Below are positions 8,042 through 55,131 of a DNA stretch of 64,000 nucleotides, in pieces. Origin of the DNA: a virus (lineage: Duplodnaviria; Caudoviricetes); the IMG/VR virus record IMGVR_UViG_3300025519_000052, positions 20,362-84,361 of that record, one strand, 5' to 3'. Under the pieces are notes generated by a model, which was not told where the DNA came from, did no database searches, and saw only the letters and a list, made by a program, of their open reading frames with translations. Within the stretch, counting starts at the first letter, position 1. Each line of letters opens with the position of its first letter. The position numbers and the translations under genes are program-made.

Positions 8042-8515
8042 ATGCTGGATATTTGTGTCGAGAAATTAAATACTGGAAGTTGGAAATGGTTTAACCTAGA
8101 TAAAGTTGGAGCCGACGAAATTCAAGAATGGTTGAATGGCCAAGAATGGGAAATTGTTGATATTGAAGGTGGAAACACCTTGTATCGTGAATTAAGATAT
8201 ATGCCATTTGAAAAAATTAAAGAATTAAATGAAATGATTGAAGATGAACAACATTTGCAAATTGCAATTGAGATTTTAAAAAGAGGCATTGTAAATAATC
8301 TTGAAGAAGCATTGGAATATGAAAATTACAGATTATATAATAATTGTAGTAGTATGGAAGATGTTGCTTATGAAGTTGTTGAAGAAAGTGGAATGTTGAG
8401 TGATGTTCCGGATCATTTAAGTAGATATTTCGATTATTCCTCTTATGGTCGTGATTTAGAAAGTAATGGTACATTCGTTCAATTAGATAATAATACGTAC
8501 TTAGAAATTTGGTAA
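8042..8515 (+). CDS. ardA: ArdA-family antirestriction protein
   Basis: Acidic protein; N-terminal GSWKWF; C-terminal YFDYSSYGRDL motif. Confidence 0.85.
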   Translation: MLDICVEKLNTGSWKWFNLDKVGADEIQEWLNGQEWEIVDIEGGNTLYRELRYMPFEKIKELNEMIEDEQHLQIAIEILKRGIVNNLEEALEYENYRLYNNCSSMEDVAYEVVEESGMLSDVPDHLSRYFDYSSYGRDLESNGTFVQLDNNTYLEIW

Positions 8516-8636: not shown

Positions 8637-9707
8637 ATGGCCAAATTTAACGCACAAGCAAATTTTACAGCTGAACTTGATGGAACAACTGTGAATGAAA
8701 TAAATAAAAAACTTGACTACTCAAAAAATAAGTTAGATGATCGTAAAAAAATCGTTGAAGATATTTTAAACGAAACAGACTTCTTTGTTGAATATTTCTC
8801 TGAATATTTTAATCCAAATATTAATAATGTAGATTATCTTTCATCTAATATTAACGTCTGCAAATCTCTTGAAAGAATGGCAAATTACCTTCTTAACTCA
8901 AAAGAAATTAAGCAGCAAGAAGATGCTGAAAAAACTCAATATGTCTTTTATACTGATGAAAAATATTTTCAAAGGAAATTAAATAAAGAAAAGTCTATCG
9001 AGTCAATTACACAAGATAATAAAGATAATGTAATTCACTTTTTGAAACGCAACGAACCAAACTACAAAAAAGAGAAAAAACAAACTATCAATTTGACCAG
9101 AAACGATAAAGTGAGATTTAAAAATAAAGCTGTTAAGAAAAATGAACAAGAATTAAAACGAATTCTCAATGATTATCAGCAGTTTCATGATTTTCTTACT
9201 GAAAAATTAGTTGATAAAAATAAATTAGCTAACCGATACCTTTTATCGAAAACAAAAAGCCAGGTTGAACAAGATATGATTTATACCAAAGACTCTTTCT
9301 TAAGGATTTTTGGTTATAATCTTCAAAACTTCCATGAGTCAACTGTTCCAACCTTAGATGTTTTTGATTTTACGAATCCTCTACATGTTAAAGGTGGAAA
9401 AGTAACTTTTGTTGATAATGCAGGAAATGAGCATGAAGTTTATGCTAAAGGCTTATTGTATTTCAAAAATGATTTTGATCCAAATAATGAATTTAGTTTT
9501 GTTATTGCCGATTTCAATAAAACTGTGGATCAAGCCGGGTTAACTAATGATGAAAAATTTGTATTGAATTCAATTCGTAACGGTTTAACTCAAGAAGAAA
9601 TTGCTGCTGAGCTTGGAACTTATCAGAAAAAAATTTCAAGGATGATAGATATAATTGCTAACAAAGTAATGAGAGTTGGAAATAAATATGACTTAGCAGA
9701 GGAATAA
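8637..9707 (+). CDS. Putative transcription regulator with C-terminal sigma-region-4/LuxR-like HTH
   Basis: LTNDEKFVLNSIRNGLTQEEIAAELGTYQKKISRM at the C-terminus. Confidence 0.6.
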   Translation: MAKFNAQANFTAELDGTTVNEINKKLDYSKNKLDDRKKIVEDILNETDFFVEYFSEYFNPNINNVDYLSSNINVCKSLERMANYLLNSKEIKQQEDAEKTQYVFYTDEKYFQRKLNKEKSIESITQDNKDNVIHFLKRNEPNYKKEKKQTINLTRNDKVRFKNKAVKKNEQELKRILNDYQQFHDFLTEKLVDKNKLANRYLLSKTKSQVEQDMIYTKDSFLRIFGYNLQNFHESTVPTLDVFDFTNPLHVKGGKVTFVDNAGNEHEVYAKGLLYFKNDFDPNNEFSFVIADFNKTVDQAGLTNDEKFVLNSIRNGLTQEEIAAELGTYQKKISRMIDIIANKVMRVGNKYDLAEE

Positions 9708-9804
9708 TTTTCCTCTCTTTTTTTATTTTTAGCTTACGAATCAAATCATCGAGATAAAAAAATTAAGAATCGCGACTCCATATTTTGGAAATGGAGGAAC
9801 TCTT

Positions 9805-10458
9805 ATGGAAAAATTGCAAGGCTATGAATTAAACAATAAAAATTTAATGAGATTTAAAGAAATTACTCATAAAATGATGGAGAAAAAATTTGTATATGAT
9901 GAAATTAAAGGACATCCAACAAAATATGAATTAATAAAGCACATTCCTGGCTGGGAAACTCTTGATATTAACCATTCTTCAATTAAACCCTTATTTGATA
10001 AATTTGTAATGAAAAGGTCTTATGAACCTGGTTCTGCAGAATTTTTATTGCCAGAAACCATTAATATGTTACCAGGATGGAATGTAGCTAACTCAACAAA
10101 GTCCGAAGATATGAAAGGTCACTACGATATACTAGTAACCAGTTTTAAATATAATATTATTGGAACTATCCAGGTATATTCTGGAAATGATTTTGATTAT
10201 CTAATGCAAAAGATGAAAAATGAAATGTTATCTCAAATTAAAAAAACAGGCAAGCGAAGTGTCTATATTCAATCTGTTTTTGATGGTGATTTTGCTCATA
10301 AGGATGAAAGGGCTTACAAATGGATTGATTATGATGGAAGTGTCAAAGCAACAGTTTTCTTTCAAACTCCTTATGGACTCGATATTAATACAGCCAAACA
10401 AATAGAAAAGAAGATTCTCTTACCATCTATGGTCAATAAGTTTACGTTTGATTTTTGA
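9805..10458 (+). CDS. Hypothetical protein, possible PD-(D/E)xK-like nuclease fold
   Basis: AEF...SEDMKGHYDILV...IGTIQVY pattern; the expected Lys is replaced by Tyr. Confidence 0.4.
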   Translation: MEKLQGYELNNKNLMRFKEITHKMMEKKFVYDEIKGHPTKYELIKHIPGWETLDINHSSIKPLFDKFVMKRSYEPGSAEFLLPETINMLPGWNVANSTKSEDMKGHYDILVTSFKYNIIGTIQVYSGNDFDYLMQKMKNEMLSQIKKTGKRSVYIQSVFDGDFAHKDERAYKWIDYDGSVKATVFFQTPYGLDINTAKQIEKKILLPSMVNKFTFDF

Positions 10459-10499
10459 TAGATATAAATATTTTAGAAAATATACGGAGGTTCTAAAAT

Positions 10500-11309
10500 A
10501 TGAATTATGCCGATCAAATATTTAAACAAAATTTAAAAGAAATTCTTAATGAAGAATTTGAAATAGATAACAGAGCAAAATGGAAAGATGGCACTCAAGT
10601 TTACACTAAAAGAATCATTTCTGTTGTAAACAAATATGATCTTTCAAAAGAATTTCCAGCTATTACTTTAAGACCTATTGGAATTAAATCAGTATTTAAA
10701 GAATTAGATTGGATTTATCGAAAACAGTCCAATAATATTAATGATTTAGGATTAAAAATTTGGGATTCATGGGCTGATGAAAATGGATCAGTTGGTAAGA
10801 CTTATGGCTATCAAATTTCAAAGCCTGTATTTGGTTATGATAATCAAATTGATTATATCCTGGGAGAAATTCAAAAGAATCCTACTTCTCGAAGACTGGT
10901 TGTGGAAATGTGGAATGTCAATGAATTATCTGAAATGAATCTACCACCATGTTATCATAATTTGCAATTTTTAATCAAGAACGGAAAGCTTCATTTAATT
11001 TTGAAACAACGTTCTTTAGATATGATAACTGCAGGAAATTGGGATGTTGTCCTTCATGCCCTGTTAGTTCATATGATTGCCAGACATTGCAATTTAGAAG
11101 TTGGTACATTAACTCATATCATTGGTGATATGCACATTTATAATAAACATATTGACCAAGCTTATGAAATGTTGAATAGAAAAAGTTTAGAAGCTCCGAA
11201 ATTTTGGTTAAATCCAGAAGTTAAAAATTTCTATGACTTTACTGAATCAGATGTGAAATTAACATATAAAGAAAAACATCCACAATTAAAATTTGAAGTA
11301 GCAATTTAA
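10500..11309 (+). CDS. thyA: Thymidylate synthase-family enzyme with Asp at the Asn177 position (possible dCMP methylase/hydroxymethylase)
   Basis: KELDW, SRR, LPPC (Cys151), QRSLDMITAGNWD (Asp182), GDMHIY, EVAI C-terminus. Confidence 0.92.
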   Translation: MNYADQIFKQNLKEILNEEFEIDNRAKWKDGTQVYTKRIISVVNKYDLSKEFPAITLRPIGIKSVFKELDWIYRKQSNNINDLGLKIWDSWADENGSVGKTYGYQISKPVFGYDNQIDYILGEIQKNPTSRRLVVEMWNVNELSEMNLPPCYHNLQFLIKNGKLHLILKQRSLDMITAGNWDVVLHALLVHMIARHCNLEVGTLTHIIGDMHIYNKHIDQAYEMLNRKSLEAPKFWLNPEVKNFYDFTESDVKLTYKEKHPQLKFEVAI

Positions 11310-11381
11310 ACTTAAGAAAGATGCAGACTATCTAAAGTTTTTTATTTACACTATCTGATCGCTCGATATAAATATATCGAG

Positions 11382-11591
11382 GTGATTTTATTGAGCAGAT
11401 TAAATACTATGGCCCGTTTTGATGGACCAGATGAAAAAGAACCAAAAGTTATTGATTATTGTTATTCATGCAATGCTGAACTCTATGAAGGTGAAGAAGT
11501 TGTAGCTCTTGAGGATTTTTTATTTTGTGATATTGATTGTCTTTTCGACGCAATAAAATATAAGACTCTGGAGGAAAATAAATATGTTTGA
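11382..11591 (+). CDS. Small Cys-rich hypothetical protein
   Basis: CYSC...CDIDC; probable start is the ATG at about 11408. Confidence 0.6.
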   Translation: MILLSRLNTMARFDGPDEKEPKVIDYCYSCNAELYEGEEVVALEDFLFCDIDCLFDAIKYKTLEENKYV

Positions 11592-12027
11592 AAAACCTTG
11601 TGATGAAAAAGTATGTCCTGTTTGCTTGGCTTGTTGTAGCAGAATCTCTGAATTAGAAAATGACCTTCATTCCCTAGTTGTTGAAAATGAAAAGCTTAAA
11701 GCAGACTTTAAAATGTTTGATTTTTATAAGGAACAATACAACAATTATTTAAGTGAAGATTATCATTGGTTAATGGAACAAGCTGAATATATTGAGAAAT
11801 TAGAGCTAGAGATAAACGATTTGCGATCAGAAGTCCAAGAATGGCAACAATTTTATAATGAATCCGAAGAAAGCCATTTAGAAACGATGGAATTGCTGAA
11901 AGACATTGTGAATCAAAATAAACGCTTACGCAAGTCTATAATCAAAGCTATTTCCGACATTGAGGTGATTAATCTGCATGAAGCGAAAAAGACATTAAGA
12001 GAGGCACTAAATGATGATGAAAATTGA
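11584..12027 (+). CDS. Coiled-coil hypothetical protein
   Basis: CPVCLAC followed by heptad-rich sequence; overlaps the upstream stop. Confidence 0.65.
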   Translation: MFEKPCDEKVCPVCLACCSRISELENDLHSLVVENEKLKADFKMFDFYKEQYNNYLSEDYHWLMEQAEYIEKLELEINDLRSEVQEWQQFYNESEESHLETMELLKDIVNQNKRLRKSIIKAISDIEVINLHEAKKTLREALNDDEN

Positions 12028-12126
12028 CAGTAAATGAAACGGAAGGGGAACAATAGAAATAAAATTCTGAACACTTTCGAGGTGCAAAATCCTTGCTTGC
12101 CTTAAGAAGAACAAGAAAGTGAATTT

Positions 12127-12210
12127 ATGATTTTAACCTTTATTAGTTGGATTGTTTCTATTCTTTCTCTGATTGTTTCAATTGTCGTAATGATTCAGTA
12201 CAAGAACTAA
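12127..12210 (+). CDS. Possible 27-aa membrane peptide
   Basis: MILTFISWIVSILSLIVSIVVMIQYKN by manual translation; weak RBS. Confidence 0.3.
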   Translation: MILTFISWIVSILSLIVSIVVMIQYKN

Positions 12211-12346
12211 TATCATATGCCACTCCATAATGAATAATAAATAAAATAAGTATATGACTTTGAAGGTAAAAACCTATGAAACGAACAAATAAATTAACTA
12301 ACAGCATCTTGAAACTTCAATGTGAAAATGAGGAGTAGTATAATAA

Positions 12347-13156
12347 ATGAGTAAAGAATTACTTGGAAGTTTAGAATTAAATCGTGTGTATCAAATGGAC
12401 TGCTTGGAAGGTATGAAGTTATTGCCTGATAAGAGCATTGATATGATTCTGTGTGATTTACCATATGGAACAACTGCATGTAAATGGGATACAATAATTC
12501 CTTTAGATAAACTTTGGGAGCAATATAAAAGGCTAATCAAAGACAATGGCGCAATTGTTTTGACATCTTCACAACCTTTTACAACTAAGCTGATAAGTTC
12601 AAATATGGAAATGTTTAAATATTGTTGGTATTGGATTAAAAGTAAACCTAATGGTTGGCAACACGCTAAAAATAAACCAATGACTAAAGTTGAAGAGGTG
12701 TGCGTGTTTTCAAAAGCACCTATGGGGCATAAAAGCCAACTAGGAGATAGAAGAATGATATACAACCCACAAGGGGTCAAGTCGGCTGGAAAGAAAAAGG
12801 TGACAGAGGTTGCTCACGGAAGAATGATGGGCGCAAGACCAAATCAAGTAGGTAAAGAATACGAAGCGTTTACAGGTTTTCCACATAATGTATTGGAATA
12901 TCCTAATATTATTGGAAAACAAGCATTGCATCCAACACAAAAGCCTGTTAAATTGTTTGAATATCTTATTAAAACTTACACAAACGAAAATGAAATTGTT
13001 TTAGATAATTGTTTAGGTTCTGGAACTACCGCAGTCGCTTGTGAACTAACCAACCGTAAATGGATTGGGTTTGAAACAGAAAAAGAATATATTGAAATTA
13101 TCAATAAAAGATTAGACCAAATACAACTTGATAATGACTTAAAAGATTATGAATAA
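12347..13156 (+). CDS. DNA amino-methyltransferase (N6-A/N4-C, beta class)
   Basis: ILCDLPYG, HPTQKP, VLDNCLGSGTT. Confidence 0.92.
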   Translation: MSKELLGSLELNRVYQMDCLEGMKLLPDKSIDMILCDLPYGTTACKWDTIIPLDKLWEQYKRLIKDNGAIVLTSSQPFTTKLISSNMEMFKYCWYWIKSKPNGWQHAKNKPMTKVEEVCVFSKAPMGHKSQLGDRRMIYNPQGVKSAGKKKVTEVAHGRMMGARPNQVGKEYEAFTGFPHNVLEYPNIIGKQALHPTQKPVKLFEYLIKTYTNENEIVLDNCLGSGTTAVACELTNRKWIGFETEKEYIEIINKRLDQIQLDNDLKDYE

Positions 13157-13329
13157 CCGCACATTTTAAATTTTAATAGATAAGCTGTGTGGAATGAGTG
13201 CTTATATTACTATAGTCTAATTAGTTTTCCCTTATTCCTCACCTAATTTAGCCCAAAATATGCTGATGAAGTCATAAAAGAATATAATGAAAAAATTAAA
13301 GAGAGCAAATAATGCTCTCTTTTTATTTG

Positions 13330-13385
13330 GTTAACTAAGGTTGACACAGTTAACCGTTGGCATTATTATAAAGAAAAGTTAACCA
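13330..13385 (+). promoter_or_regulatory. sigmaA-like promoter overlapped by three GTTAAC sites
   Basis: GGTTAACT, TTGACA, CAGTTAACC, TATTAT, AGTTAACC directly upstream of ORF 13394. Confidence 0.5.
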
Positions 13386-13393
13386 GAAAAGGA

Positions 13394-14281
13394 ATGATTA
13401 AAATGAGCACATATAGTGAGTTACTTGGAATTAAAGTTAAACCAGAAACAAAAGAAAATATCATGAAGTTAACTGAAAAATTAACTCAGGCTGGTCGAAT
13501 TGATTATAAAGGTGATGTTATTGATTATTTAATTCAACGTGCCGATTTGAGAGATTTATCTGAAGAAATTTCTTATGGCGGCTATCTTAGAGACTTGCAA
13601 CAACAAACCAAAAGAATTGAAGAAATATTTGTTTCCTTGGCTAAACAGAATGAGGGAAATTTGGAATTTACCAAAAAAGAAATGCAAGGAAAGATAATTG
13701 AACTTCAAGAAGTTGTTAATCAATTGGAGCGAGAGAAAAACGAACTTGAAATGCAGTTAGCTGAAGAAAAGTCTAAAATAGAAGAGTTAACTGGGTTAAT
13801 CGAAGTTAATCAAAAAGCAGTAAATGATTATTCTGATCGTATTGAAGAACAGAAAAATACAATTAGCATTATGAGTGCTAATATGAAAGCGCTTGAAGAT
13901 AAAGTAAAAACTCTAAAGCAATTAGAAGATACTAATAGAAAATTGAATCAAGATTTAACCAATAAAGAATTTTATCTGAAAGAGCTAACTGATAAAGTAT
14001 CTAGCCTAGAAAAATCGATTCAAGAACAAAAAGATTATTATGAGAAGAAAATAGAAATGCAAAATTTTGAATGGGAAAAAGCATTATTTGAAAAAGAAAG
14101 AGAATTTCAAAATCACTTCCAGAGTATGGCAGATGAACTTTATAAGCAGCGTGATGATTACATTTCTAAATATGATGAAAAACTCTCTTCCCTTCAGGAT
14201 AAATATAATACTCTTTTAGAAGAAAAGCAAAAATTGGAAGCTCAATTAAATAAAGAAGGAAATAAAAACCGGAATGATTAG
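13394..14281 (+). CDS. Long coiled-coil protein with probable N-terminal DNA-binding domain (KfrA-like architecture)
   Basis: LLGIKVKPETKENI N-terminus, then about 230 aa of heptads. Confidence 0.6.
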   Translation: MIKMSTYSELLGIKVKPETKENIMKLTEKLTQAGRIDYKGDVIDYLIQRADLRDLSEEISYGGYLRDLQQQTKRIEEIFVSLAKQNEGNLEFTKKEMQGKIIELQEVVNQLEREKNELEMQLAEEKSKIEELTGLIEVNQKAVNDYSDRIEEQKNTISIMSANMKALEDKVKTLKQLEDTNRKLNQDLTNKEFYLKELTDKVSSLEKSIQEQKDYYEKKIEMQNFEWEKALFEKEREFQNHFQSMADELYKQRDDYISKYDEKLSSLQDKYNTLLEEKQKLEAQLNKEGNKNRND

Positions 14282-14518
14282 AGTTAAAACTTCATGGATT
14301 GTCTGAAGTAGAAATAAAAATTTAATACCATTCCACCATTAAATATGGTGGATTTTTTTATTCCTCAGTTTACATCTTAAAACCTGCAGATATAAAGATT
14401 ATGTAATTTTTATTGATGATGATTTTTAAAAAATATCTAAGATGCAGCTTACAAACGAAAATCATCAGATATAAAAAAATTGAAATTAAACAAATCTTTA
14501 AATCGGAGGAATTTTATT

Positions 14519-15508
14519 ATGGAAAATACTCAACTTCGCCAGCTACAAAATACTGTTGAAATTATTGGTACTTTGAAATCTAAAGATTTAGAAGTTCGTA
14601 CTTCCAAAAAAGGCAATCAATATATGTCTGGCAATTTAGTAGTTCAATCGGTTGTTGATAATAAAATTAATGAAACAAGGGTAAGAGTTTTCACTATGCA
14701 ATCTTCCAAATTGTTTAAAGGAATTGAAACTGTTAAAAACGAGTACAAATCAATTGATGAATATGGTGAAGAAAATGCAGATCGAATTCGAGTAATTGGT
14801 GAATTGGGATTAAATGAGTATTATAATCAACAAGGCAACTTAGTTCAATTTAATGAAGTTAGAGGCGTTTTCTTCAATCGTTTAGACAAAGAAAATAAGC
14901 AACCAGATAAAGCTATTGCTTCAATTGAAACTGTTGTTGAAAATTTTGTTGAAAAAACTGATAAAGATGGTCTTCCAACCGGTGAATATGCTGTCAATGG
15001 TTTTACTGTTGGATGGGGAAATGAAGTTATTGAATTGAAAAATGTAGTAATTGGTAAAGAACTTGCTCAATCATTTATGGACTTATATCAACCTGGCTCA
15101 ACTGGTCTATTAACATATAAACTTAATAACTATGTTGAGGTTGAAGAAAGACAAGAAGAACAAAATACTACACATGGATTTGGATCTAGTGAAAAAGTTT
15201 CCAGTTCAAATATTATCAAAAACTATGTAAATAACATTGAAATTATCGGTGGCGATATGCCATTCTTCGGTTCTAAGGAATACACACCAGATGAAATTGC
15301 GGCTGCAAAGAAAATTCGTGCTTTAAAATTGCAAGAATTACAACAACCGGCACCTGAAATTCCACAAACCAATACTGGATTTGGACAAAAACCTTTGACA
15401 ATGAAAGACATTGATAGTCAAATGCCAACAAATATGATGGACGGTAACCAAAATCCATTTGATGCAATGAATAATCTAAATGATGATGACGAAATGCCAG
15501 ATTTTTAA
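14519..15508 (+). CDS. Single-stranded DNA-binding protein (SPbeta YorF-like)
   Basis: OB-like N-terminus (EIIGTLKSKDL), acidic DDDEMPDF tail; RBS AATCGGAGG before the ATG at 14519. Confidence 0.75.
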   Translation: MENTQLRQLQNTVEIIGTLKSKDLEVRTSKKGNQYMSGNLVVQSVVDNKINETRVRVFTMQSSKLFKGIETVKNEYKSIDEYGEENADRIRVIGELGLNEYYNQQGNLVQFNEVRGVFFNRLDKENKQPDKAIASIETVVENFVEKTDKDGLPTGEYAVNGFTVGWGNEVIELKNVVIGKELAQSFMDLYQPGSTGLLTYKLNNYVEVEERQEEQNTTHGFGSSEKVSSSNIIKNYVNNIEIIGGDMPFFGSKEYTPDEIAAAKKIRALKLQELQQPAPEIPQTNTGFGQKPLTMKDIDSQMPTNMMDGNQNPFDAMNNLNDDDEMPDF

Positions 15509-15591
15509 TAAATTGGTAACTTATCAAATTTGAAGGGATTAAATATATCCCTTCTCCCCTATTTTAAATTAAAACCAGGAGGAAATTTTGA

Positions 15592-16332
15592 ATGGGCAAT
15601 AAATATGACGATATTCGTTGGAAATGGTTGGCTGAACGAGGATTTAATGTCTTAGCTGATAAACACCAATATGCTTATGCTCAAAGTTTATTTGCGAGCC
15701 CTGACGTTGTAACTGGAGTTTTTTGTGATGCAAAAGCTGGAACTGGTAAAACAACAATTGCCACTTTAATTGGTGCATATGAAGTGGAACGAGGAAATTA
15801 TGACAGAATTATTTATGTGAGAAACGCTGTTCCAGTTCGTGATATTGGCTTTCTTCCTGGTGGAATTGGTGAAAAAGAATTGCCTTATATGTTGCCATTT
15901 ATTGAAGCTCTTGACCATGTTCAACCTGGATTATTTGAAAAATGGTCATGTCAACAAGAAGATGGAAAGAACAAAGATAAAGAAACTCCAAAGGTTCAAG
16001 TTACTACTTCTGCTTATTCAAGAGGTATTACTTGGAATAATGCTTTTATTATCATTGATGAATTTCAATCTTTCGACCTTAATGAAGCACAAACTGTTTT
16101 AACAAGACCAACTGATAACTGTAAAGTTGTTGTTATTGGATCAACAAGACAAAATGATAATCCAAAAAATAAAATTAATGGAATGACTCCGTTCGAAATA
16201 TATATGAGACATTTTCAAGGTTATCCGGTAGCTTTCCATAAACTTGAAACTAACTATCGTGGATGGTTATCAACTAGAGCTGATGAAATACATGAGACTA
16301 TTGAGAAGTTAAAATCGGAGGAAATATCATGA
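15592..16332 (+). CDS. phoH: PhoH-family ATPase
   Basis: AKAGTGKTT, GFLPG...EK, RGITWNNAFIIIDEFQ, VVVIGSTRQND. Confidence 0.92.
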   Translation: MGNKYDDIRWKWLAERGFNVLADKHQYAYAQSLFASPDVVTGVFCDAKAGTGKTTIATLIGAYEVERGNYDRIIYVRNAVPVRDIGFLPGGIGEKELPYMLPFIEALDHVQPGLFEKWSCQQEDGKNKDKETPKVQVTTSAYSRGITWNNAFIIIDEFQSFDLNEAQTVLTRPTDNCKVVVIGSTRQNDNPKNKINGMTPFEIYMRHFQGYPVAFHKLETNYRGWLSTRADEIHETIEKLKSEEIS

Positions 16333-16814
16333 AAGGTTATTTAGCAAACGGATTATTTTCAATAGGAGATAGGCTTGTAAATGAGATGATTGCAAAAGAA
16401 GTAAGAAAAGAAATTCCAAACATTGAGTTATATGTTCCTCAAGAAAATGATGATATTAATGATAAACAATCATATGCTGATAGTTTATTAATTGCTCAAG
16501 CTGATTCTCAAAAACTTTTAGAAAGTGATTTTTTGATTGCAGTCATTGATGGTGTAGAGATTGACTCGGGTGTAGCAGCAGAGATTGGTTTATTTTCTTC
16601 GTTAAAAAAGCCAATTTATGGTTTATATACTGATGTTAGACAACTTGGTAGAGACAATAATTTAAAAATTGAAGCACTTATAAAAGATGGGACGGAAAAT
16701 CAATTTATGTATAGAAATTTATTTGTTGTAGGATTAATAAAACAAAATGGTTTGATATTTTCTGATATTAAAAGTCTAATTTCACAACTTAAAGAAGATA
16801 TTTATAATATCTAA
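16329..16814 (+). CDS. Nucleoside 2-deoxyribosyltransferase-family protein
   Basis: YLANGLFS, YVPQE, DGVEIDSGVAAEIG, NLFVVG. Confidence 0.88.
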   Translation: MKGYLANGLFSIGDRLVNEMIAKEVRKEIPNIELYVPQENDDINDKQSYADSLLIAQADSQKLLESDFLIAVIDGVEIDSGVAAEIGLFSSLKKPIYGLYTDVRQLGRDNNLKIEALIKDGTENQFMYRNLFVVGLIKQNGLIFSDIKSLISQLKEDIYNI

Positions 16815-16906
16815 TATTATCAGAGGAATAGTCCCCTCCTCTTATTTTTTTTAATTCCATTTACGTTTGAAAATTATCAGATATAAATAATTAGGAGGTT
16901 AAATAA

Positions 16907-17140
16907 ATGAAATATAAATACAAAGTTGGTGATAAAGCAATTGTTTACCAACAAATTTGTGGTCATCAATTTGAACTTGGCTCCATTGTTACAATTGTGA
17001 AGTTTTCTTCAAATAGTGATTATTTTCAAGCAAATGATGGAAAGAACACTTGGTATGTCTCTAGGGATGAAATTTTTCCTTATGAACTTCTAAAAAATAA
17101 AATTTTAGAGAAATTACAAAATGGAGAATATACTTATTAA
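16907..17140 (+). CDS. Small SH3/KOW-like hypothetical protein
   Basis: YKYKVGDKAIV start; phage-type promoter at 16860. Confidence 0.6.
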   Translation: MKYKYKVGDKAIVYQQICGHQFELGSIVTIVKFSSNSDYFQANDGKNTWYVSRDEIFPYELLKNKILEKLQNGEYTY

Positions 17141-17156
17141 TGATGAGGTGGATTTA

Positions 17157-17297
17157 ATGAGATTATTAAGTTATTCAATTGGCGTTACTGCGGGAGGTTA
17201 CCTCATGTATAATATACTTCACCCTTATCCTTTAGGTATTTTAGTAGATGCAATAACAATTGTATTATGTGCAATTTCAAATAATAATTCAAAGTGA
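17157..17297 (+). CDS. 46-aa membrane protein
   Basis: GAGGTG RBS; MRLLSYSIGVTAGGYLMYNILHPYPLGILVDAITIVLCAISNNNSK. Confidence 0.45.
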   Translation: MRLLSYSIGVTAGGYLMYNILHPYPLGILVDAITIVLCAISNNNSK

Positions 17298-17400
17298 TTA
17301 TGGTTGGTTGATTTGTAAAAGTGGAAAATGGTGAGTTGTTGGCACGAAAGCGAAAATTATTAATCATCTATTAAACAAAATTCAAAAAGAGGTTGATAAA

Positions 17401-17919
17401 ATGAGTATAATTGACGAACAAAAAGAAGTCGTAGATCGTTTAGTTAAAGCATTAGGATATATCGATCTTGCAAAATCATCTTTTATGGTTGGCGGATTTG
17501 TGTCGGAATATAATGCGAAAGATAGTTTAGAAGAAGTCGCTAAGCAAATTCGTGAGGAAATTGAGATCCATAAGAGTCATATTCGTAGATTGTCAAAAAA
17601 ATATCGTAAGTTGACTCGTAACGAGATCATCGAAAAAGCGAAACGAGAAGTAGAAGAGACACGGAATGATCCAATTAAAATGGAAGGATTACTTGCGACA
17701 TTTGTAGTAGATAAAGAAAAACGAACTGTAACTACTTTATTAGCATCTGTTTCAACTGGAATGGTTGAAAGAAAAGGTGTTGCTAAATGTCACCCAGATG
17801 ATTATTTCAATGTTCATATTGGTAAGATTATATCTCTCCGACGTGCTCTAAGACTTGAAGTACCTTCTGAGTATTTGAATGTGCCACATCCGACAGAATT
17901 TTGTGAAGGAGGATTGTGA
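17401..17919 (+). CDS. Hypothetical Bacillus-phage protein
   Basis: KGVAKCHPDDYFNVHIGKIISLRRAL motif recognisable from Bacillus phage proteins. Confidence 0.65.
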   Translation: MSIIDEQKEVVDRLVKALGYIDLAKSSFMVGGFVSEYNAKDSLEEVAKQIREEIEIHKSHIRRLSKKYRKLTRNEIIEKAKREVEETRNDPIKMEGLLATFVVDKEKRTVTTLLASVSTGMVERKGVAKCHPDDYFNVHIGKIISLRRALRLEVPSEYLNVPHPTEFCEGGL

Positions 17920-17921
17920 TA

Positions 17922-18077
17922 ATGGAGAGAGTAAAAGCAAAAGTATCTGCAACTGCATCAGTGGAATTGGTTGCAATTATCAAAAAATATAATAATGGAC
18001 AAATCGAACTCGATGAAATTTTAGATATTTTAGACTTAGATGACATTGATGATATAGAAGTCAAATCAGAATTTTAA
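17922..18077 (+). CDS. 51-aa acidic hypothetical protein
   Basis: GGAGG RBS; MERVKAKVSATASVELVAIIKK... Confidence 0.5.
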   Translation: MERVKAKVSATASVELVAIIKKYNNGQIELDEILDILDLDDIDDIEVKSEF

Positions 18078-18148
18078 TGTAGATTTATTGATCACCGTCA
18101 TAATTTCGAAGTTAACACATATTACGAACTAAAAAGAGGTTTAAAAAA

Positions 18149-18340
18149 ATGGAAAAAGTATCATTGGAAAAATGTAAATGGTGTAACGGAACGGGTAATG
18201 GAGCATCCCACATTATGGATACTTCATATCCATGTCCCGATTGCGAAGGAACAGGTTATAAAGAAGGAAAAAGAGCTGAACTGTATCTTGATTATTTGAT
18301 GGAAGAAAGACATAAAGAAGAAATGAACAAAATCAAATAA
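18149..18340 (+). CDS. DnaJ-type zinc-finger protein
   Basis: CKWCNGTG and CPDCEGTG. Confidence 0.75.
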   Translation: MEKVSLEKCKWCNGTGNGASHIMDTSYPCPDCEGTGYKEGKRAELYLDYLMEERHKEEMNKIK

Positions 18341-18386
18341 TTGGTAATATTTTCGAAAATCCGGAGTTGTTGGAGGCGAACGATGA

Positions 18387-18923
18387 ATGAACTTACAAAA
18401 ATTATTTGAAGCACAATTTGAATTAGATGAACGAATTATTGAAAAGAAAGGATTACAGGGAGTTGATTTGCTTCCGAACTTAATCATAGCATTGCAAGTT
18501 GAACTTGGCAAATGTGCACAAGAATGGAGAGGGTTTAAACTTTGGAGTAGTAGACAAGAACCAGTGACTGAAGATTTAAGGGTAGTGGATTTCAAAGGAA
18601 ATGGAGAAGCAATTATTGAAACATACAACCCACTTCTTGAACAATATGTCGACTGCTTGAATTTTACTCTATCAATTGGCCTTCATCTCTATAATGAGGT
18701 CGTTTCAGCAGACTTGTATGGTTTTAGAAGAACTAACATTCTAGATCAATTTAAAACTCTTTTTCATTATTCAACCATGTTATCTGGTGATTATTGTTAT
18801 TGGCGTTTTTTTGAGTATTTAATTGGTCTCGGTGAGATGTTTGGTTTTACCTGGGATCAGATTGAACAAGTCTATTTTGAAAAGAATGAGAAAAATCATA
18901 GCCTTCTGGAAGATGGATATTGA
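18387..18923 (+). CDS. Dimeric (all-alpha) dUTPase homolog with altered catalytic motifs
   Basis: ALQVELGKCAQEWRGFK, LLEQYVDCLNF, KNEKNHSLL; several usually acidic, His or Arg positions differ. Confidence 0.8.
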   Translation: MNLQKLFEAQFELDERIIEKKGLQGVDLLPNLIIALQVELGKCAQEWRGFKLWSSRQEPVTEDLRVVDFKGNGEAIIETYNPLLEQYVDCLNFTLSIGLHLYNEVVSADLYGFRRTNILDQFKTLFHYSTMLSGDYCYWRFFEYLIGLGEMFGFTWDQIEQVYFEKNEKNHSLLEDGY

Positions 18924-18934
18924 GGTGAAAAAAG

Positions 18935-19066
18935 ATGATTGTAAAAAAAGAATGGCGCAGTAAAAAGACAGTTGGAAGCAAATTCACATCTCCATTATAC
19001 ATTTATACCGGATACTTTCTTTTTGGAGTTATTCCAGTTTATATCCATAGAGAATTAAACGTGTAA
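18935..19066 (+). CDS. 43-aa hypothetical protein
   Basis: GAGGTG RBS; ...YTGYFLFGVIPVYIH... Confidence 0.5.
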   Translation: MIVKKEWRSKKTVGSKFTSPLYIYTGYFLFGVIPVYIHRELNV

Positions 19067-19087
19067 AATAAAAAAGATCATGCTTTA

Positions 19088-19300
19088 CCTAGTCTGTAAA
19101 ATATTTGTTCATCTACCTATATTTTACACTGGGAGGGCTTGAAGCTGCAGCCTTAGAAGCAACTCTTCATTTCATTGATAATATTTAAAAAATTGTTTAA
19201 AATTTATTAAAAAAATTATTAAAAACGATTTACACTTTTATTTAATCTGATATAAATAATATGTAATTTGATTAAATAAATTTTTAAATCAATTAGATAA
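19088..19300 (+). repeat. Direct repeat copy 1 of a ~200-bp promoter module
   Basis: CCTAGTCTGTAAAATATTTGTT...ATTTAAAAAATTGTTTAAAA...TTTACA-N14-GATATAAA...GTAATTTGATTAAAT recurs at 19882-20040. Confidence 0.8.
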
Positions 19301-19354
19301 TAGTGTGAACATAACATGTAGGAGTGGATAAGTACAGGGAAGGGGAATGAAGGA

Positions 19355-19861
19355 ATGAGTATCAAAATTAAACGATTGCATTCGGATGCAGTGATTCCGA
19401 AATATATACATGCTGGCGATTCAGGGTTTGACCTTGTCGCTGTGGAAGATATCACTATCGAGCCTGGCGAAACGGTCAAAGTGCCGACAGGGCTTGCGTT
19501 CGAGTTGCCGGAAGGCTACGAGTTGCAAATACGACCACTGTCGGGCATTACGCTAAAAACGAAATTGCGTGTGCAACTCGGCACCGTCGATGCAGGATAT
19601 AGAGGCGAAATCGGCGTGATTGTTGATAATATTGCCGAGGATCTGTTCGGAAATGTTGTGCCATATCTCTCGCATATTGACGGTAACGATTATCGGACGG
19701 ACGGCGAAATCTATCCGAATGAAACGTACATCATCCGAAAAGGCGACAGAATTGCGCAAGGTGTAATTGCTCCGGTCGCTAAAATGGAGTTTGAAGAAGT
19801 AGACAAATTAAGTGATACAGAGTGAAGTAATAAAGGATTTGGAAGTACAGGTGTAGATTGA
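19355..19861 (+). pseudogene. dut: Trimeric dUTPase interrupted by in-frame TGA at the motif-V Arg
   Basis: Motifs I-IV are present (RPRSG reads RPLSG); TGA at 19823-19825 is followed in frame by SNKGFGSTGVD and a stop at 19859-19861. Confidence 0.85.
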
Positions 19862-19881
19862 AACAAAAAGGCCAAGCTCTT

Positions 19882-20040
19882 CCTAGTCTGTAAAATATTT
19901 GTTTAGCTACCTATATAATATTTAAAAAAATTGTTTAAAAAATTGTTTAAAACTTATTAAAAAATTATTAAAAATGATTTACATTTTTATTTAACTAGAT
20001 ATAAAGAATACGTAATTTGATTAAATGAATTTTTAAATCG
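19882..20040 (+). repeat. Direct repeat copy 2 of the promoter module
   Basis: See 19088-19300. Confidence 0.8.
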
Positions 20041-20053
20041 GAGGAATGTATTT

Positions 20054-21088
20054 ATGATTGATCTTTTACATTTAGAACCAGTGAAAGCTTCTACTGACTT
20101 ATCTTCTTACACTTCTTTTATTTATGGTATTCCTAAAATCGGTAAAACAACTTTTGTTTATAACCTTTATAAAGACCGAGTTCTTTTTATTGCAACTGAA
20201 AAACGTCATAAAGTTTTAGTTGGTGCAAAAGTTCAATATGTTTCATCTTGGGCTGAATATTTACAAGTTTTATCTCAACTACGCAATCCAAAAGTAAAAG
20301 AATTATTTGATGTTATTGCAATTGATACAGTTGAAAACTTATATCAAATGCTTGAGCAATATATTCTCGCAAAATATAACAAAACTGAATTTGGTCAAGT
20401 TGAATGGGGAAAAGATTGGGTTGACCTTAAAAATGACTGGAAAAATGGCTTGCAAATGATTGAAAGACTTGGTTATTCTCCATGTTTTATTTCTCACGCA
20501 ACTCAAGTTACAACTAAGATTCCTGCGGCTGGAATTCTTCAAGAACAAGTCAATGATACTATGACTTTAAAAAGTGATAAGAAAACTGGAGAACAATACT
20601 ACGAATTTGTTAAGTATGTCCCGGATTTGAAGGACAAAGTTATGGCACCAATTAACAAAATGGTTGATAACATACTGTTTATGACAGTTACAACTGATGA
20701 ATCTGGACAAGAACACCGAGTTATTCATCTTCGTGAAACATTGCAATGGCAAGCTGGTTCAACATTTGAAGGTATTGATCCAGTAATTCCATTGGATGCA
20801 GAAGCTTATAAGAAAGCTGTTGAAGATGCAATCGGCAAACTTGATCCTTCAATGTTGAAATCTGAAAAAGAATCAATTGGTATTGAAGAACAAGAAAAAC
20901 TTAACTTTGATGAATTAATGCAAGAAGCTAAAGAAATTGCTTATAAATTTCATCAAGCCGGCCGTATGGAAGAAGTCCAACGAATTGTTGATGAAGTTTT
21001 TGGCGCCGGCAATAAATTGACTGATGCAAAACCAACTCAAGTACAACCATTATTTGTTGCAGTTCAAAGAATGAAAGAATCTTTATAA
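20054..21088 (+). CDS. AAA_24/Sak4-like ATPase (SPbeta YorG-like recombination protein)
   Basis: YGIPKIGKTT, IAIDT, FISHAT. Confidence 0.85.
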   Translation: MIDLLHLEPVKASTDLSSYTSFIYGIPKIGKTTFVYNLYKDRVLFIATEKRHKVLVGAKVQYVSSWAEYLQVLSQLRNPKVKELFDVIAIDTVENLYQMLEQYILAKYNKTEFGQVEWGKDWVDLKNDWKNGLQMIERLGYSPCFISHATQVTTKIPAAGILQEQVNDTMTLKSDKKTGEQYYEFVKYVPDLKDKVMAPINKMVDNILFMTVTTDESGQEHRVIHLRETLQWQAGSTFEGIDPVIPLDAEAYKKAVEDAIGKLDPSMLKSEKESIGIEEQEKLNFDELMQEAKEIAYKFHQAGRMEEVQRIVDEVFGAGNKLTDAKPTQVQPLFVAVQRMKESL

Positions 21089-33918: not shown

Positions 33919-34356
33919 ATGACTAGAGAATGCTCAACTACTGAACCAAAAATCATTATTTTAGAAGGTGTTGATCGTGTTGGTAAAAGTACTTTGAAAG
34001 ACACAATTCATAAGTTAACCAATTTCAAACATTTCTTAATTGATCGAGGACCAATTTCATACATGGCGTACTGTGAAATTTTTAATAGGCCTATAGATTT
34101 GTATTTAAAATATTCAGACATGGAAAAAAGGCTTGCTAAAATGCCAAATGTTTTGGTGTTTTATTTAACTGCAAATAATGAAACTCTTGTTGATCGTTGT
34201 ATTGCAGATAATCATGAAATTATTGACTTTGATTTTCATAAGCAAGTTTTTGAAAGAATTATAAAAACTTCTCCACTAAAATCGATTACTATCGATACTT
34301 CAAATAATTCTTCTGAAAGCATTGTTACAGATTTAATTAAAGAAGGTGTTTTGTAA
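33919..34356 (+). CDS. Deoxynucleoside monophosphate kinase (thymidylate-kinase fold, YorR-like)
   Basis: ILEGVDRVGKST, IDRGPIS. Confidence 0.85.
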   Translation: MTRECSTTEPKIIILEGVDRVGKSTLKDTIHKLTNFKHFLIDRGPISYMAYCEIFNRPIDLYLKYSDMEKRLAKMPNVLVFYLTANNETLVDRCIADNHEIIDFDFHKQVFERIIKTSPLKSITIDTSNNSSESIVTDLIKEGVL

Positions 34357-34357
34357 T

Positions 34358-34810
34358 ATGAATAAAATTATAATTTATACCGATGGAGGCACTCGTGGGA
34401 ACGGTAAAGAGTGCAATGTCGGTGGTTTTGGAGCCGTTCTTCAATATGGTAACCATACTAAAGAAATCTATCAAGGCTTTAGAAATACAACAAACAATCA
34501 AATGGAATTAAAAGCTGCAATTGAAGCCTTAAAACAAATAAAGAAGTTTAATATTCCTGTTTATGTTTATTCAGACTCTGCTTATCTTGTTAATTGCATG
34601 AATCAGAAATGGTATAAAAAATGGATGAACAATGGCTGGATAACCTCTAGTAAGAAGACTGTAGAAAATCGTGAGCTCTGGATTGAATTAATTGAATTGG
34701 TTCAAAAATTTACGTTTATAACTTTTATAAAGGTTAAAGGCCATAATGGTAATCCATTAAATGAACGCGCTGATCAATTAGCAAATCTTGCTATGGATTC
34801 AGTATCTTAA
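34358..34810 (+). CDS. rnhA: Ribonuclease HI
   Basis: YTDGG, TNNQMEL, SDSAY, VKGH, NERADQLA. Confidence 0.95.
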   Translation: MNKIIIYTDGGTRGNGKECNVGGFGAVLQYGNHTKEIYQGFRNTTNNQMELKAAIEALKQIKKFNIPVYVYSDSAYLVNCMNQKWYKKWMNNGWITSSKKTVENRELWIELIELVQKFTFITFIKVKGHNGNPLNERADQLANLAMDSVS

Positions 34811-34824
34811 TGGAGGAAATTAGT

Positions 34825-35244
34825 ATGAAAAAAATACTTTCATGGGATGAATACTTTATGGAGCTTGCTCGTGTATCTGCCATGAGAAGTAAAGATCCTC
34901 ATACACAAGTTGGAGCTTGTATTATTGATTCTGAAAAGCATGTTGTTGGTTTAGGATATAACGGCCAGCCCAAAGGGCTTGACAATAAGTTTTCCTGGGA
35001 TAAAAATGAAAAACATTATTATGTTGTCCATGCCGAATTAAATGCCATTTTAAACAGTATTAAAAATTTAGATGGTTGCACTATTTATTGTACTCTCTTT
35101 CCATGTGCAGAATGTGCTAAAGCAATTGCTCAATCTGGAATTATTAAAGTAATTTATCTTTCTGATAAAGATAAAGACAAGGAATACAATAAAGCAGCTA
35201 AAAAAATATTTACAGAATGCGGAATTGAATATGAGCAAATGTAA
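34825..35244 (+). CDS. dCMP deaminase
   Basis: SKDPHTQVGACI, GYNG, HAELNAI, PCAECAK. Confidence 0.93.
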   Translation: MKKILSWDEYFMELARVSAMRSKDPHTQVGACIIDSEKHVVGLGYNGQPKGLDNKFSWDKNEKHYYVVHAELNAILNSIKNLDGCTIYCTLFPCAECAKAIAQSGIIKVIYLSDKDKDKEYNKAAKKIFTECGIEYEQM

Positions 35245-40442: not shown

Positions 40443-40817
40443 ATGGACAAATTACAATTTTTATTAGATTCACAAGAAAAATTTCAAAAACGCCTTGGAC
40501 AAGATTTTCCACTTATGAATGAAAAAGAAAAATCGGAATTTCTTCATGTTCATGGTTATTTCTTAATTGAGGAAGTTGCTGAAATGCTGCGTGAAACTCC
40601 ATTTCATAAACCATGGAAACAATATAACTGGGATGAAGAAAAAACTTTAAGCCAGGAAGAACTTCAAAAAGATGAAGCAATTGATGCTTTACATTTTTTA
40701 ATTAATATCTTTTTAGCACTCGGCATGGATTCTGAAGAAGTTATTGAACGATACAAAGAAAAAAACAAACTCAATTATCGTCGTCAAGAAGATTCAAGTC
40801 TAGGTTATATAAAATGA
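40443..40817 (+). CDS. All-alpha NTP pyrophosphatase (dimeric dUTPase/dCTPase/MazG-like), motifs intact
   Basis: IEEVAEM, KPWK, DEAIDALHF, KNKLNYRRQ. Confidence 0.85.
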   Translation: MDKLQFLLDSQEKFQKRLGQDFPLMNEKEKSEFLHVHGYFLIEEVAEMLRETPFHKPWKQYNWDEEKTLSQEELQKDEAIDALHFLINIFLALGMDSEEVIERYKEKNKLNYRRQEDSSLGYIK

Positions 40818-42096: not shown

Positions 42097-42648
42097 ATGA
42101 TTTATGTCTTATTAGGTCCAACTTGTTCTGGTAAGACTACAACTCTAAAGCAACTTGTTGATTTTGGTTATGAGCCTATCATAACTTATACAACTCGGCC
42201 AAAAAGAAAAAATGAAGTAGATGGAAAAGATTATTATTTTATTTCAGAAAGACAATTTAATCACTTAGACGAATTCAATTTATTGATAGCAAAAAATACA
42301 TTTAAAAATGCTTTTGGAACAGAATGGCATTATGCTATCAATCGGCAAGATATTGATTTAACTAAAGATTTGGTAGTAATTACTGATCCTAAAGGTTATC
42401 GAGATTTAGTTAAAACTTTTGGAAAAGAAAACGTAACAAGTATTTACTTGAATACAAACTATGAAATTAGACTTATTCGTGGATTGAACAGACAAGACCA
42501 AGTAAATGAGCTATATAGAAGATTGCTTTCTGATGAAGAAGTTTTTAGAGGGTTTGAGAAAGAAGCTGATTATATAATTACTGAGACTACAAAAGTTGGT
42601 GTTCTGAATAAAGTTCTAAAAATAATTTATGGAGGTAAGCAATCTTGA
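42097..42648 (+). CDS. gmk: Guanylate kinase-like protein
   Basis: GPTCSGKTT, YTTRPKRKNEVDGKDYYF. Confidence 0.9.
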   Translation: MIYVLLGPTCSGKTTTLKQLVDFGYEPIITYTTRPKRKNEVDGKDYYFISERQFNHLDEFNLLIAKNTFKNAFGTEWHYAINRQDIDLTKDLVVITDPKGYRDLVKTFGKENVTSIYLNTNYEIRLIRGLNRQDQVNELYRRLLSDEEVFRGFEKEADYIITETTKVGVLNKVLKIIYGGKQS

Positions 42649-53431: not shown

Positions 53432-53908
53432 ATGACAATATCAATTATTGCAGCAATGGATAAGAATAGAGTAATCGGAAAAAATAATTCCATACCATGG
53501 TATTTACCAGATGATTTAAAATTTTTTAAGAAAATGACATTAAATTCACCAGTTGTTATGGGCAGAAAATGCTTTGAATCAATTGGAAAACCTCTGACTA
53601 ATAGAAAAAATATTGTTTTATCCAAAAATTCATTTAAACATAAAAATATTGAATCATATTCTAGCATTGAAGAAGTCATTGAAAAATATGAAGATTTTTA
53701 TGTTATTGGTGGAAGTCAAATATATAGTGCTTTTCTTCCATATGCTGATAAGCTTATTATCACAAAGATTGAATATGAATTTGAAGGAAATATATTTTTC
53801 CCTGAAATAAATTGGAATGAATGGACTTTAGAAAGCAGTGTTGAAGGAAAAATTAATGAAAAAAATAAATATAAGCATTCTTTTAATATATATAGAAGAA
53901 AACGATAA
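53432..53908 (+). CDS. Dihydrofolate reductase
   Basis: IIAAMDKNRVIG...IPWYLPDDL, MGRK, RKNIVLS, IGGSQIY. Confidence 0.95.
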   Translation: MTISIIAAMDKNRVIGKNNSIPWYLPDDLKFFKKMTLNSPVVMGRKCFESIGKPLTNRKNIVLSKNSFKHKNIESYSSIEEVIEKYEDFYVIGGSQIYSAFLPYADKLIITKIEYEFEGNIFFPEINWNEWTLESSVEGKINEKNKYKHSFNIYRRKR

Positions 53909-55089: not shown

Positions 55090-55131
55090 TGCAAGGTCTG
55101 TCATTATATAAAAAATTGGAGGGACATAAAA

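Follow-up and report, generated by a model that had tools for sequence, protein, structure and literature searches.

We analyzed a 64,000-nt stretch of DNA from a Caudoviricetes virus (the window; bases 20362 to 84361 of the 84,361-bp IMG/VR record IMGVR_UViG_3300025519_000052, which CheckV rates as 100% complete) and found that its ThyA-fold gene, located at 10500..11309 on the plus strand, encodes a protein of 269 amino acids (PF00303) that is predicted to be a 5-methyl-dCMP synthase, i.e., a C5-methyltransferase of deoxycytidine monophosphate (dCMP). We hold with moderate confidence that this enzyme is of the same functional kind as that of phage Xp12, that it arose independently, and that it most likely feeds both 5-methylcytosine (5mC) to the phage DNA and, via deamination, deoxythymidine (dT) to the nucleotide pool. 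What carries this reading is the fold with its catalytic and diagnostic residues, the conservation of these residues in natural populations, the partner genes, and the convergence with Xp12.

The PF00303 profile spanned the whole protein (residues 7 to 269 on profile positions 2 to 266; E = 6.8e-74; 248.8 bits against a curated cut-off of 24.3), and the top relative of solved structure was Bacillus subtilis ThyA (1B02/1BKO; E of about 2e-60). The PDB alignments ran without gaps from the catalytic Cys to helix J, with RSLDMITAGNWD of the query facing RSNDMALGNPFN and RSADVFLGVPFN of the templates, so that GNWD of the query was paired with NPFN and VPFN. This ungapped alignment equates Cys151 and Asp182, which are 31 residues apart, with Cys146 and Asn177 of Escherichia coli thymidylate synthase (TS), respectively, and thereby bears out the starting point of an earlier sequence-only reading, which had placed Asp182 (GAT, 11043..11045) at the pyrimidine-specificity residue (positions in E. 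coli numbering are hereafter marked Ec). The residues expected of a ThyA enzyme were all present, including the catalytic Cys, the Arg pair and Arg-Ser for phosphate binding, and the equivalents of Glu58, Tyr94, His207, and Tyr209. The invariant columns of our alignment (A1) included C151, R131, R171, S172, E68, Y102, H212, and Y214, R130 precedes R131 within the conserved SRR motif, and the C-terminus, FEVAI, gives the protein the full length of a TS. The codons of the catalytic Cys151 and of the adjacent Tyr152 (Ec147) lie at 10950..10955. The canonical TS acting on deoxyuridine monophosphate (dUMP; EC 2.1.1.45) has Asn at Ec177, which reads O4 and N3-H of uracil, and this is where the protein departs from it by carrying Asp182.

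PF00303 had a single match in the whole 84,361-bp genome, and neither ThyX nor a C5 DNA methyltransferase was found anywhere in the record. The earlier claim that this is the only TS-fold gene of the window thus holds for the entire genome. A megablast search of the gene region against cultured phages gave no match. Directly upstream, on the same strand, the gene has its own copy of the motif TTAC-N15-GATATAA, a putative phage-type promoter (10442..10467), and a GGAGG ribosome-binding site (10486..10490) stands 9 nt before the ATG.

Published work provides a residue code for this protein family. The residue at Ec177 picks the substrate, with Asn for dUMP and Asp for dCMP, and that at Ec143 correlates with the product, with a bulky hydrophobic residue for methyl and Asp or Glu for hydroxymethyl, as in the T4-like enzymes and MilA; D169N is the mark of flavin-dependent 5-hydroxy-dCMP synthases (PMC13326640). 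The acidic Ec143 of the T4 gp42-type hydroxymethylase admits water. The substitutions N177D in E. coli and N229D in Lactobacillus casei turn TS into a dCMP methylase with a reversed preference (cited in PMC8670742 and PMC13326640), and Ec177 and Ec147 are the two TS positions most tied to cytosine-modified metavirome contigs (eLife 2021, PMC8670742). Furthermore, a 2024 NEB preprint reported that 5-methyldeoxycytidine (5mdC) was made in vivo by the Xp12 TS homolog and by five of seven metagenomic homologs with Asp177 (10.1101/2024.12.05.627091). Our query has Asp182 at Ec177, Leu148 at Ec143 (10941..10943), the position that separates methyl from hydroxymethyl products in this code, and Asp174 at Ec169 (11016..11021, together with Leu173 at Ec168), which is the published methyl-dCMP signature; these three residues predict 5-methyl-dCMP as the product. 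The suggestion of the sequence-only reading that the gene may encode a dCMP methylase is therefore what the residue code predicts.

We consider it very unlikely that the enzyme initiates a hypermodification by making a different C5 derivative of dCMP, either the 5-hydroxymethyl or the 5-hydroxy form. Such chemistry would fit the Asp at Ec177, which is common to T4 gp42, MilA, and the RB69 and DLP3 enzymes, and the Ec143 rule is correlative; an Amidoligase_2 gene (PF12224) and a gamma-glutamyl cyclotransferase-like (GGACT) gene also form a pair (54103 to 55551) directly after the dihydrofolate reductase (DHFR) gene. However, Leu148 is not the acidic residue of a hydroxymethylase (Asp in T4 gp42), Asp174 is not the Asn of a 5-hydroxy-dCMP synthase, and the protein runs to a full TS-like C-terminus, beyond the point where T4 gp42 stops. 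Nor is the amidoligase/GGACT pair confined to phages with an Asp-type TS, since G003, an Asn-type relative of 82.5 kb that is 98% complete, has it too. The Pfam and PHROG matches of the window included no glycosyltransferase, carbamoyltransferase, other DNA-transferase, or TET-like gene, with the first 20 kb of the record (tail-like by comparison with G003) lying outside the Pfam scan. Finally, the linkage of DHFR to the TS gene in other Asp-type lineages fits a reductive methylation.

The sequence-only reading had left it to be checked whether the Asp is conserved or a sequencing error. The 90% protein cluster contained three further alleles (from Logan and ENA assemblies) that differ by two to four residues and have the loop and PPCYHN intact. 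When four other metagenome runs were compared with the gene, 14 of the 16 listed nucleotide differences were synonymous, the remaining two being V65I and I159V, and no difference was listed at the Asp182 codon (11043..11045). The codons of Leu148 (CTA>CTG) and Leu173 were each hit by a synonymous change in other metagenome samples. The retention of Asp in three alleles from other assemblies, together with the mostly synonymous differences, rules out a sequencing or assembly error as well as a pseudogene, and the TS gene is under purifying selection. Contigs matching the phage itself at 88 to 99% identity occurred in runs of nine studies, whose sources included compost, a bioreactor, and bear gut.

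Asp at Ec177 is a real departure and not the family norm. In a search of about 5.8 billion proteins, 114 of the 120 nearest ones (47 to 72% identical) had Asn at this position, and a wider set that included 50%-cluster representatives held 250 proteins with Asn versus 18 with Asp. All the closest relatives (63 to 72% identical) were of the Asn/Tyr type at Ec177/Ec181 and came from similar-sized phages with a matching local gene order, i.e., a sigma-like gene, TS, small open reading frames (ORFs), YorF, PhoH, nucleoside deoxyribosyltransferase, AAA_24, and ribonucleotide reductase (RNR). In a TS tree computed without the loop columns, the query was sister to 11 Asn/Tyr proteins (local support of 95), which makes its switch independent of the other Asp lineages; about five Asn/Asp changes are needed to explain the tree, of which no fewer than four fall on well-supported branches. 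As judged from these sequences, the Asn-to-Asp switch arose independently inside a Bacillota-phage ThyA clade, which is new here. We also think, at slightly above an even chance, that the enzyme evolved from a dUMP-specific, B. subtilis ThyA-like phage TS, which is part of the reading we favor. On the other hand, the earlier description of the switch as recent was overstated, since the nearest Asn-type protein in the search was only 72% identical and several further positions of the active site differ, too. When another Asp-type protein, P0225, was used to look for Xp12-type enzymes, all matches were ordinary TS from phages of Bacteroides and Arthrobacter.

A screen for positions at which the query departs from residues conserved in Asn-type proteins returned, besides Asp182 that defines the type, five further changes. 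At Ec93, Ala is replaced by Thr101 (10800..10802), which adjoins Tyr102, the equivalent of the catalytic base Tyr94, and Ser or Thr occupies this position in 9/9 Asp-type versus 11/98 Asn-type proteins. At Ec168, Asn or Gln is replaced by Leu173, with a non-polar residue in 7/9 Asp-type proteins and in none of the 98 Asn-type ones. At Ec147, Val or Ala is replaced by Tyr152, a Tyr that was absent from all 98 Asn-type proteins, and at Ec149, His is replaced by Asn154. At Ec181, one helix turn past Asp182, Tyr is replaced by His186 (CAT, 11055..11057), and His was found there in 8 of the 18 Asp-type proteins but in none of the 250 Asn-type ones, although raw counts of this kind are not statistically independent. 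The Xp12 enzyme, at 27% identity to the query, also carries Asp177 and His181, and T4 gp42 has Gln at Ec181. These second-shell changes suggest, but do not prove, a convergence that accompanies the Asp switch, and the imidazole of His186 probably tunes the carboxylate of Asp182. The Tyr-to-His change at Ec181 may thus serve as a cheap extra marker for predicting 5-methyl-dCMP synthases, and it is a candidate reason why point mutants such as N177D perform poorly.

The same residues bear on whether the enzyme could still be a working TS that converts dUMP to thymidine monophosphate (dTMP), or a dual-specific one, with the Asp being tolerated, perhaps with His186 keeping it protonated and thereby mimicking Asn. 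The other catalytic and folate-side residues are all as in the Asn-type relatives, this is the phage's sole TS, related phages use theirs for dTMP, and two of the seven natural Asp177 homologs yielded no 5mdC in the preprint assay. However, Asn was found in 250/250 Asn-type relatives, and the Asp forms come with convergent extra changes, which would be unexpected for a neutral variant. In addition, the Asn-to-Asp change reverses the preference in mutagenesis, and Asp177 is linked to cytosine-modified metavirome contigs. We therefore regard a retained TS function as quite unlikely.

Candidate partner genes for a 5-methyl-dCMP synthase of the Xp12 kind were identified in the window, all on the plus strand. 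The co-occurrence of DHFR, a dCMP deaminase, a dNMP kinase, and an all-alpha pyrophosphatase of the T4 gp56 fold, pointed out in the sequence-only reading, was confirmed by Pfam for every member. DHFR is encoded at 53432..53908 (PF00186; E = 6.6e-58). A dCMP-deaminase-family enzyme, a candidate for the deamination of 5-methyl-dC nucleotides to dT nucleotides, is encoded at 34810..35244 (PF00383; E = 3.9e-27); its top PDB matches were human DCTD (2W4L) and the PBCV-1 dCMP/dCTP deaminase (7FH4), and it is 33% identical to the Xp12 deaminase. An all-alpha NTP pyrophosphatase of the dUTPase_2 family, a candidate dCTPase of 178 amino acids, is encoded at 18387..18923 (PF08761; E = 1.4e-26; phrog_173), and a second, short one at 40443..40817 (PF08761; E = 2.4e-10). 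Two kinase genes were found, one for a Tmk-like P-loop kinase of 145 amino acids, a candidate dNMP kinase (33919..34356; PF02223 at E = 6e-6, just under the curated cut-off; phrog_761, thymidylate kinase), and the other for a guanylate-kinase-like dNMP kinase (42097..42648; PF00625; E = 1.2e-15). The Tmk-like protein corresponds to the C-terminal part of proteins of 343 to 350 amino acids in the relatives G002 and G003. The window also encodes RNR, NrdI, a thymidine kinase, a YfbR-like nucleotidase, a deoxyribosyltransferase, and, at 19355 to 19825, a trimeric dUTPase (Pfam), and the polymerase of the phage is of the DnaE type. The partner set of deaminase, DHFR, and all-alpha pyrophosphatase is as complete as in Xp12, but dispersed rather than clustered.

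From these genes and the residue code, we infer the following course of reactions. Cys151 would attack C6 of dCMP, and Asp182, probably tuned by His186, would take over the role of the uracil-reading Asn, recognizing and protonating cytosine at its N3/N4 face. Methylenetetrahydrofolate would give carbon and hydride, yielding 5-methyl-dCMP and dihydrofolate, the latter to be recycled by the phage DHFR. The all-alpha NTP pyrophosphatase would supply dCMP from dCTP, and the phage dNMP kinases together with a host NDP kinase would phosphorylate 5-methyl-dCMP to the triphosphate used by the DnaE-type polymerase, such that 5mC may take the place of some or all C in virion DNA. The dCMP-deaminase-family enzyme would turn part of the 5-methyl-dC nucleotide pool into dT nucleotides, offsetting the lost dUMP-specific TS. 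In three other lineages (Xp12, P0139, and the bacterial locus P0096 described below), the DHFR gene lies next to an Asp-type TS gene or overlaps it, a linkage that fits a reaction releasing dihydrofolate. As evidence for methylation, on which the sequence-only reading had relied, the phage's own DHFR gene is real but carries less weight, since one Asn-type relative of the phage group also codes for DHFR.

The two outcomes that the sequence-only reading had offered as alternatives, i.e., 5mC in phage DNA or the deamination of methylated dC nucleotides to dT, are already joined in one published pathway, the Xp12 model, in which they occur together. The conversion is thus not a new route to dTMP, as it has been described and tested for Xp12-type and metagenomic phages (bioRxiv 10.1101/2024.12.05.627091). 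In the same study, dCMP-deaminase-family genes stood beside the TS gene in 70% of modified versus 6% of unmodified contigs, 5mdC entered DNA in the tested systems when a kinase was present, the DNA of Xp12-type phages was described as fully 5mC, and IMG/VR was already screened for contigs with PF00383 and an Asp177 TS.

The related phages allowed us to ask which of these genes go with the Asp. G003 encodes an Asn-type TS (65% identical to the query) and has no deaminase, no trimeric dUTPase, and only the short dUTPase_2. G002 (IMGVR_UViG_3300025541_000013), a partial genome of 43 kb, has an Asn-type TS (71% identical) and a syntenic dUTPase_2 (51% identical). A dCMP deaminase was absent from all four related Asn-type phage records that were searched, including the 98% complete one. 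The only TS of G006 (IMGVR_UViG_3300010002_000010), a related phage that is complete with terminal repeats at 92 kb, is of the Asp type (L131:3001-3831), and the genome has no PF00383 gene; with Phe at Ec181 and the loop AWNFDVVMF, G006 represents a second, independent Asp-type lineage in the phage group. An obligatory co-occurrence of the deaminase with the Asp-type TS was rejected for this reason. The alignment of 14480 to 21088 of the window with 9251 to 16335 of G002 was mosaic, with PhoH at 98%, the deoxyribosyltransferase at 99%, and two small ORFs at 93 to 96% identity. The genes that had diverged or been exchanged in this comparison were the two that handle pyrimidines, TS (71%) and dUTPase_2 (51%), against flanks of 93 to 99%, a pattern that would fit, if weakly, a joint shift in the specificity of both. 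Asn-type relatives also have the kinases, the short pyrophosphatase, and the amidoligase/GGACT pair, none of which is thus specific to the switch. The G+C content gave no signal, at 32.3% versus 32.5% and 30.3% in the relatives.

Several observations weigh against the 5-methyl-dCMP synthase feeding phage DNA. Two of the seven tested Asp177 homologs made no 5mdC, as noted above, and Xp12 itself shows Asn at Ec143 in our own alignment and not a bulky hydrophobic residue, which makes the Ec143 rule a correlation and not a law. When the association of Asp with His, Ser/Thr, and non-polar residues at the co-varying positions was tested by independent contrasts, two of the five contrasts in total were well supported, with p of at least 0.5. 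A base specificity of the dUTPase_2 proteins, dCTP versus dUTP, cannot be argued, because all they have in common with T4 gp56 is the Pfam family PF08761; the 178-amino-acid protein had no match in a PDB sequence search and an E of 0.012 in BLASTP against T4 gp56. Asn-type relatives likewise encode both kinases and the short pyrophosphatase, and the complete G006 combines an Asp-type TS with the lack of a deaminase. Full 5mC might be expected to relax the avoidance of C/G palindromes relative to Asn-type relatives, but the observed/expected ratio of C/G-palindrome 6-mers was much the same, at 0.91 versus 0.85 and 0.83 in these relatives; 4-mers were mixed, GATATC was still avoided, and such statistics carry little information. 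Finally, the phage still carries an ArdA anti-restriction protein (8042 to 8515) and two DNA methyltransferases (12347 to 13156, N6_N4 type; 21329 to 22876, DUF4942/MTS type).

The last two of these observations also favor a route in which 5-methyl-dCMP is essentially all deaminated to dTMP, by the phage deaminase or a ComEB-type deaminase of the host, so that the enzyme would serve only as a dUMP-independent source of thymidylate and the virion DNA would contain ordinary C. The presence of the deaminase in this phage and its absence from the four Asn-type records are in line with such a route, and so is a bacterial chromosome with an Asp/His thyA in a deaminase-thyA-dfrA-mazG operon, as full 5mC would be unlikely in a cell and 77 of 80 Asn-type chromosomal relatives have thyA-dfrA alone. 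However, G006 has the Asp-type TS with no deaminase to go with it, and the route has no evident advantage over the ordinary order of deaminase, then TS. Moreover, the entry of 5mdC into DNA in the tested systems with a kinase and the fully 5mC DNA of Xp12-type phages argue against it for a phage that encodes two dNMP kinases. A bypass without 5mC in DNA therefore seems unlikely to us, and we retain the reading in which the enzyme would feed both DNA and the dT pool.

The bacterial operon was found on a 312-kb contig of a Clostridiales metagenome-assembled genome, amid housekeeping genes. Its TS, P0096, has Asp and His with the loop AGNWDVVQHA, and the overlapping genes of the operon (L039:9468-11691; JGI 3300025011) encode a dCMP deaminase, ThyA, DfrA (DHFR), and a MazG-like pyrophosphatase. 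The relatives of P0096, i.e., its 119 nearest database proteins and 80 GTDB relatives, were all of the Asn/Tyr type, and the 77 GTDB loci with thyA-dfrA alone had neither a deaminase nor MazG. The operon may provide a cellular route to dTMP through 5-methyl-dCMP. A more general, and in our view doubtful, proposal is that an Asp/His ThyA and a dCMP-family deaminase make up a self-standing, dUMP-free thymidylate pathway (dCTP to dCMP to 5-methyl-dCMP to dTMP), which would have arisen repeatedly, in this Bacillota phage and on at least one bacterial chromosome, through one small set of substitutions (Asp at Ec177, His at Ec181, Ser/Thr at Ec93, and a non-polar residue at Ec168). Cells would then use it as a source of dTMP, and it would be more than a side effect of making 5mC-DNA in Xp12-like phages.

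Some features of the window were observed beside these. The trimeric dUTPase reading frame (19355 to 19858) is interrupted by a TGA at 19823 to 19825, exactly where motif V (R-x-x-GFGSTG) should start, and SNKGFGSTG follows in frame. All four other metagenome runs read C at position 19823 (CGA, Arg) at full depth, which indicates a C-to-T nonsense change in this assembly in a gene that is otherwise intact; the gene is absent from G002 and G003. The DnaE (Pol III alpha) ORFs at 36091 to 38565 and 38848 to 40203 match one continuous gene of about 1263 amino acids in G002 and G003, which points to an intervening sequence of about 280 nt in this phage. ArdA and both DNA methyltransferases had no match in G002 or G003. 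The N6_N4 methyltransferase gene lies within a 1263-bp segment (12028 to 13290) that contigs of two other studies skip, with 12027 joined to 13291 and 14 other letters between, and the segment thus appears to be a variable cassette in the phage population.

What is new here is the independent switch in a Bacillota-phage ThyA clade with its convergent second-shell changes, along with the Asp/His thyA operon of a bacterial chromosome. If the reading we favor is true, the pre-replicative substitution of 5mC is not limited to the Xp12/PaMx74 group, which infects Proteobacteria, but also occurs in a lineage whose gene content is that of Bacillota phages, and within a single subfamily ThyA has switched from dUMP to dCMP several times, accompanied by the same second-shell changes. 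The phage deaminase would be a candidate 5mC-selective deaminase, an enzyme class used for methylome sequencing, and the bacterial operon, if functional, would be a thymidylate route not described for cells.

Among known systems, the Xp12 TS homolog (QNN97214.1, an accession located through PMC7653180, for a phage whose DNA is fully 5mC) has the ThyA fold, Asp at Ec177, His at Ec181, and Asp at Ec169 in common with the query, and the Xp12 genome, like that of the query phage, encodes a dCMP-deaminase-family enzyme, DHFR, and an all-alpha NTP pyrophosphatase. However, Xp12 has its PRA-PH pyrophosphatase, TS, deaminase, and DHFR in one row, whereas the genes of the query phage are scattered over 43 kb, and Xp12 has Asn at Ec143 where the query has Leu. 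The Xp12 enzyme, only 27% identical to the query, belongs to a different ThyA subfamily, so that the query has an independent origin. The hosts of Xp12 and other PaMx74-type Bradleyvirinae are Proteobacteria, whereas the query phage has Bacillota-phage gene content (SPbeta-like YorF and Bacillaceae-like TS relatives).

The Asn-type ThyA proteins of related phages and Bacillaceae (1B02/1BKO) are of the same subfamily as the query and share its length, C-terminus, and syntenic position, with identities of 72% for the closest, 65 to 72% for the IMG/VR relatives, and 57% for the TS of Geobacillus virus E3. The phosphate-binding, catalytic, and folate-side residues are all common to both; the query differs by Asn to Asp at Ec177, Tyr to His at Ec181, Ala to Thr at Ec93, Asn to Leu at Ec168, Val to Tyr at Ec147, and His to Asn at Ec149, and these six substitutions would imply a changed substrate. 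The engineered E. coli N177D and L. casei N229D enzymes are laboratory point mutants with the same single substitution at Ec177 on a normal TS scaffold, whereas the natural query enzyme shows additional convergent substitutions near the pyrimidine pocket. T4 gp42 (and the CMP hydroxymethylase MilA) has the ThyA fold, the catalytic Cys, and Asp at Ec177 like the query, but T4 gp42 differs from it by Asp at Ec143, Gln at Ec181, a shorter C-terminus, an identity of only 24%, and its paired glucosyltransferases. Lastly, the 5-hydroxy-dCMP synthases RB69 gp48 and DLP3 gp80 are ThyA homologs that use dCMP as their substrate and likewise have Asp at Ec177; they carry D169N (and L143E), whereas the query keeps Asp174 and Leu148.

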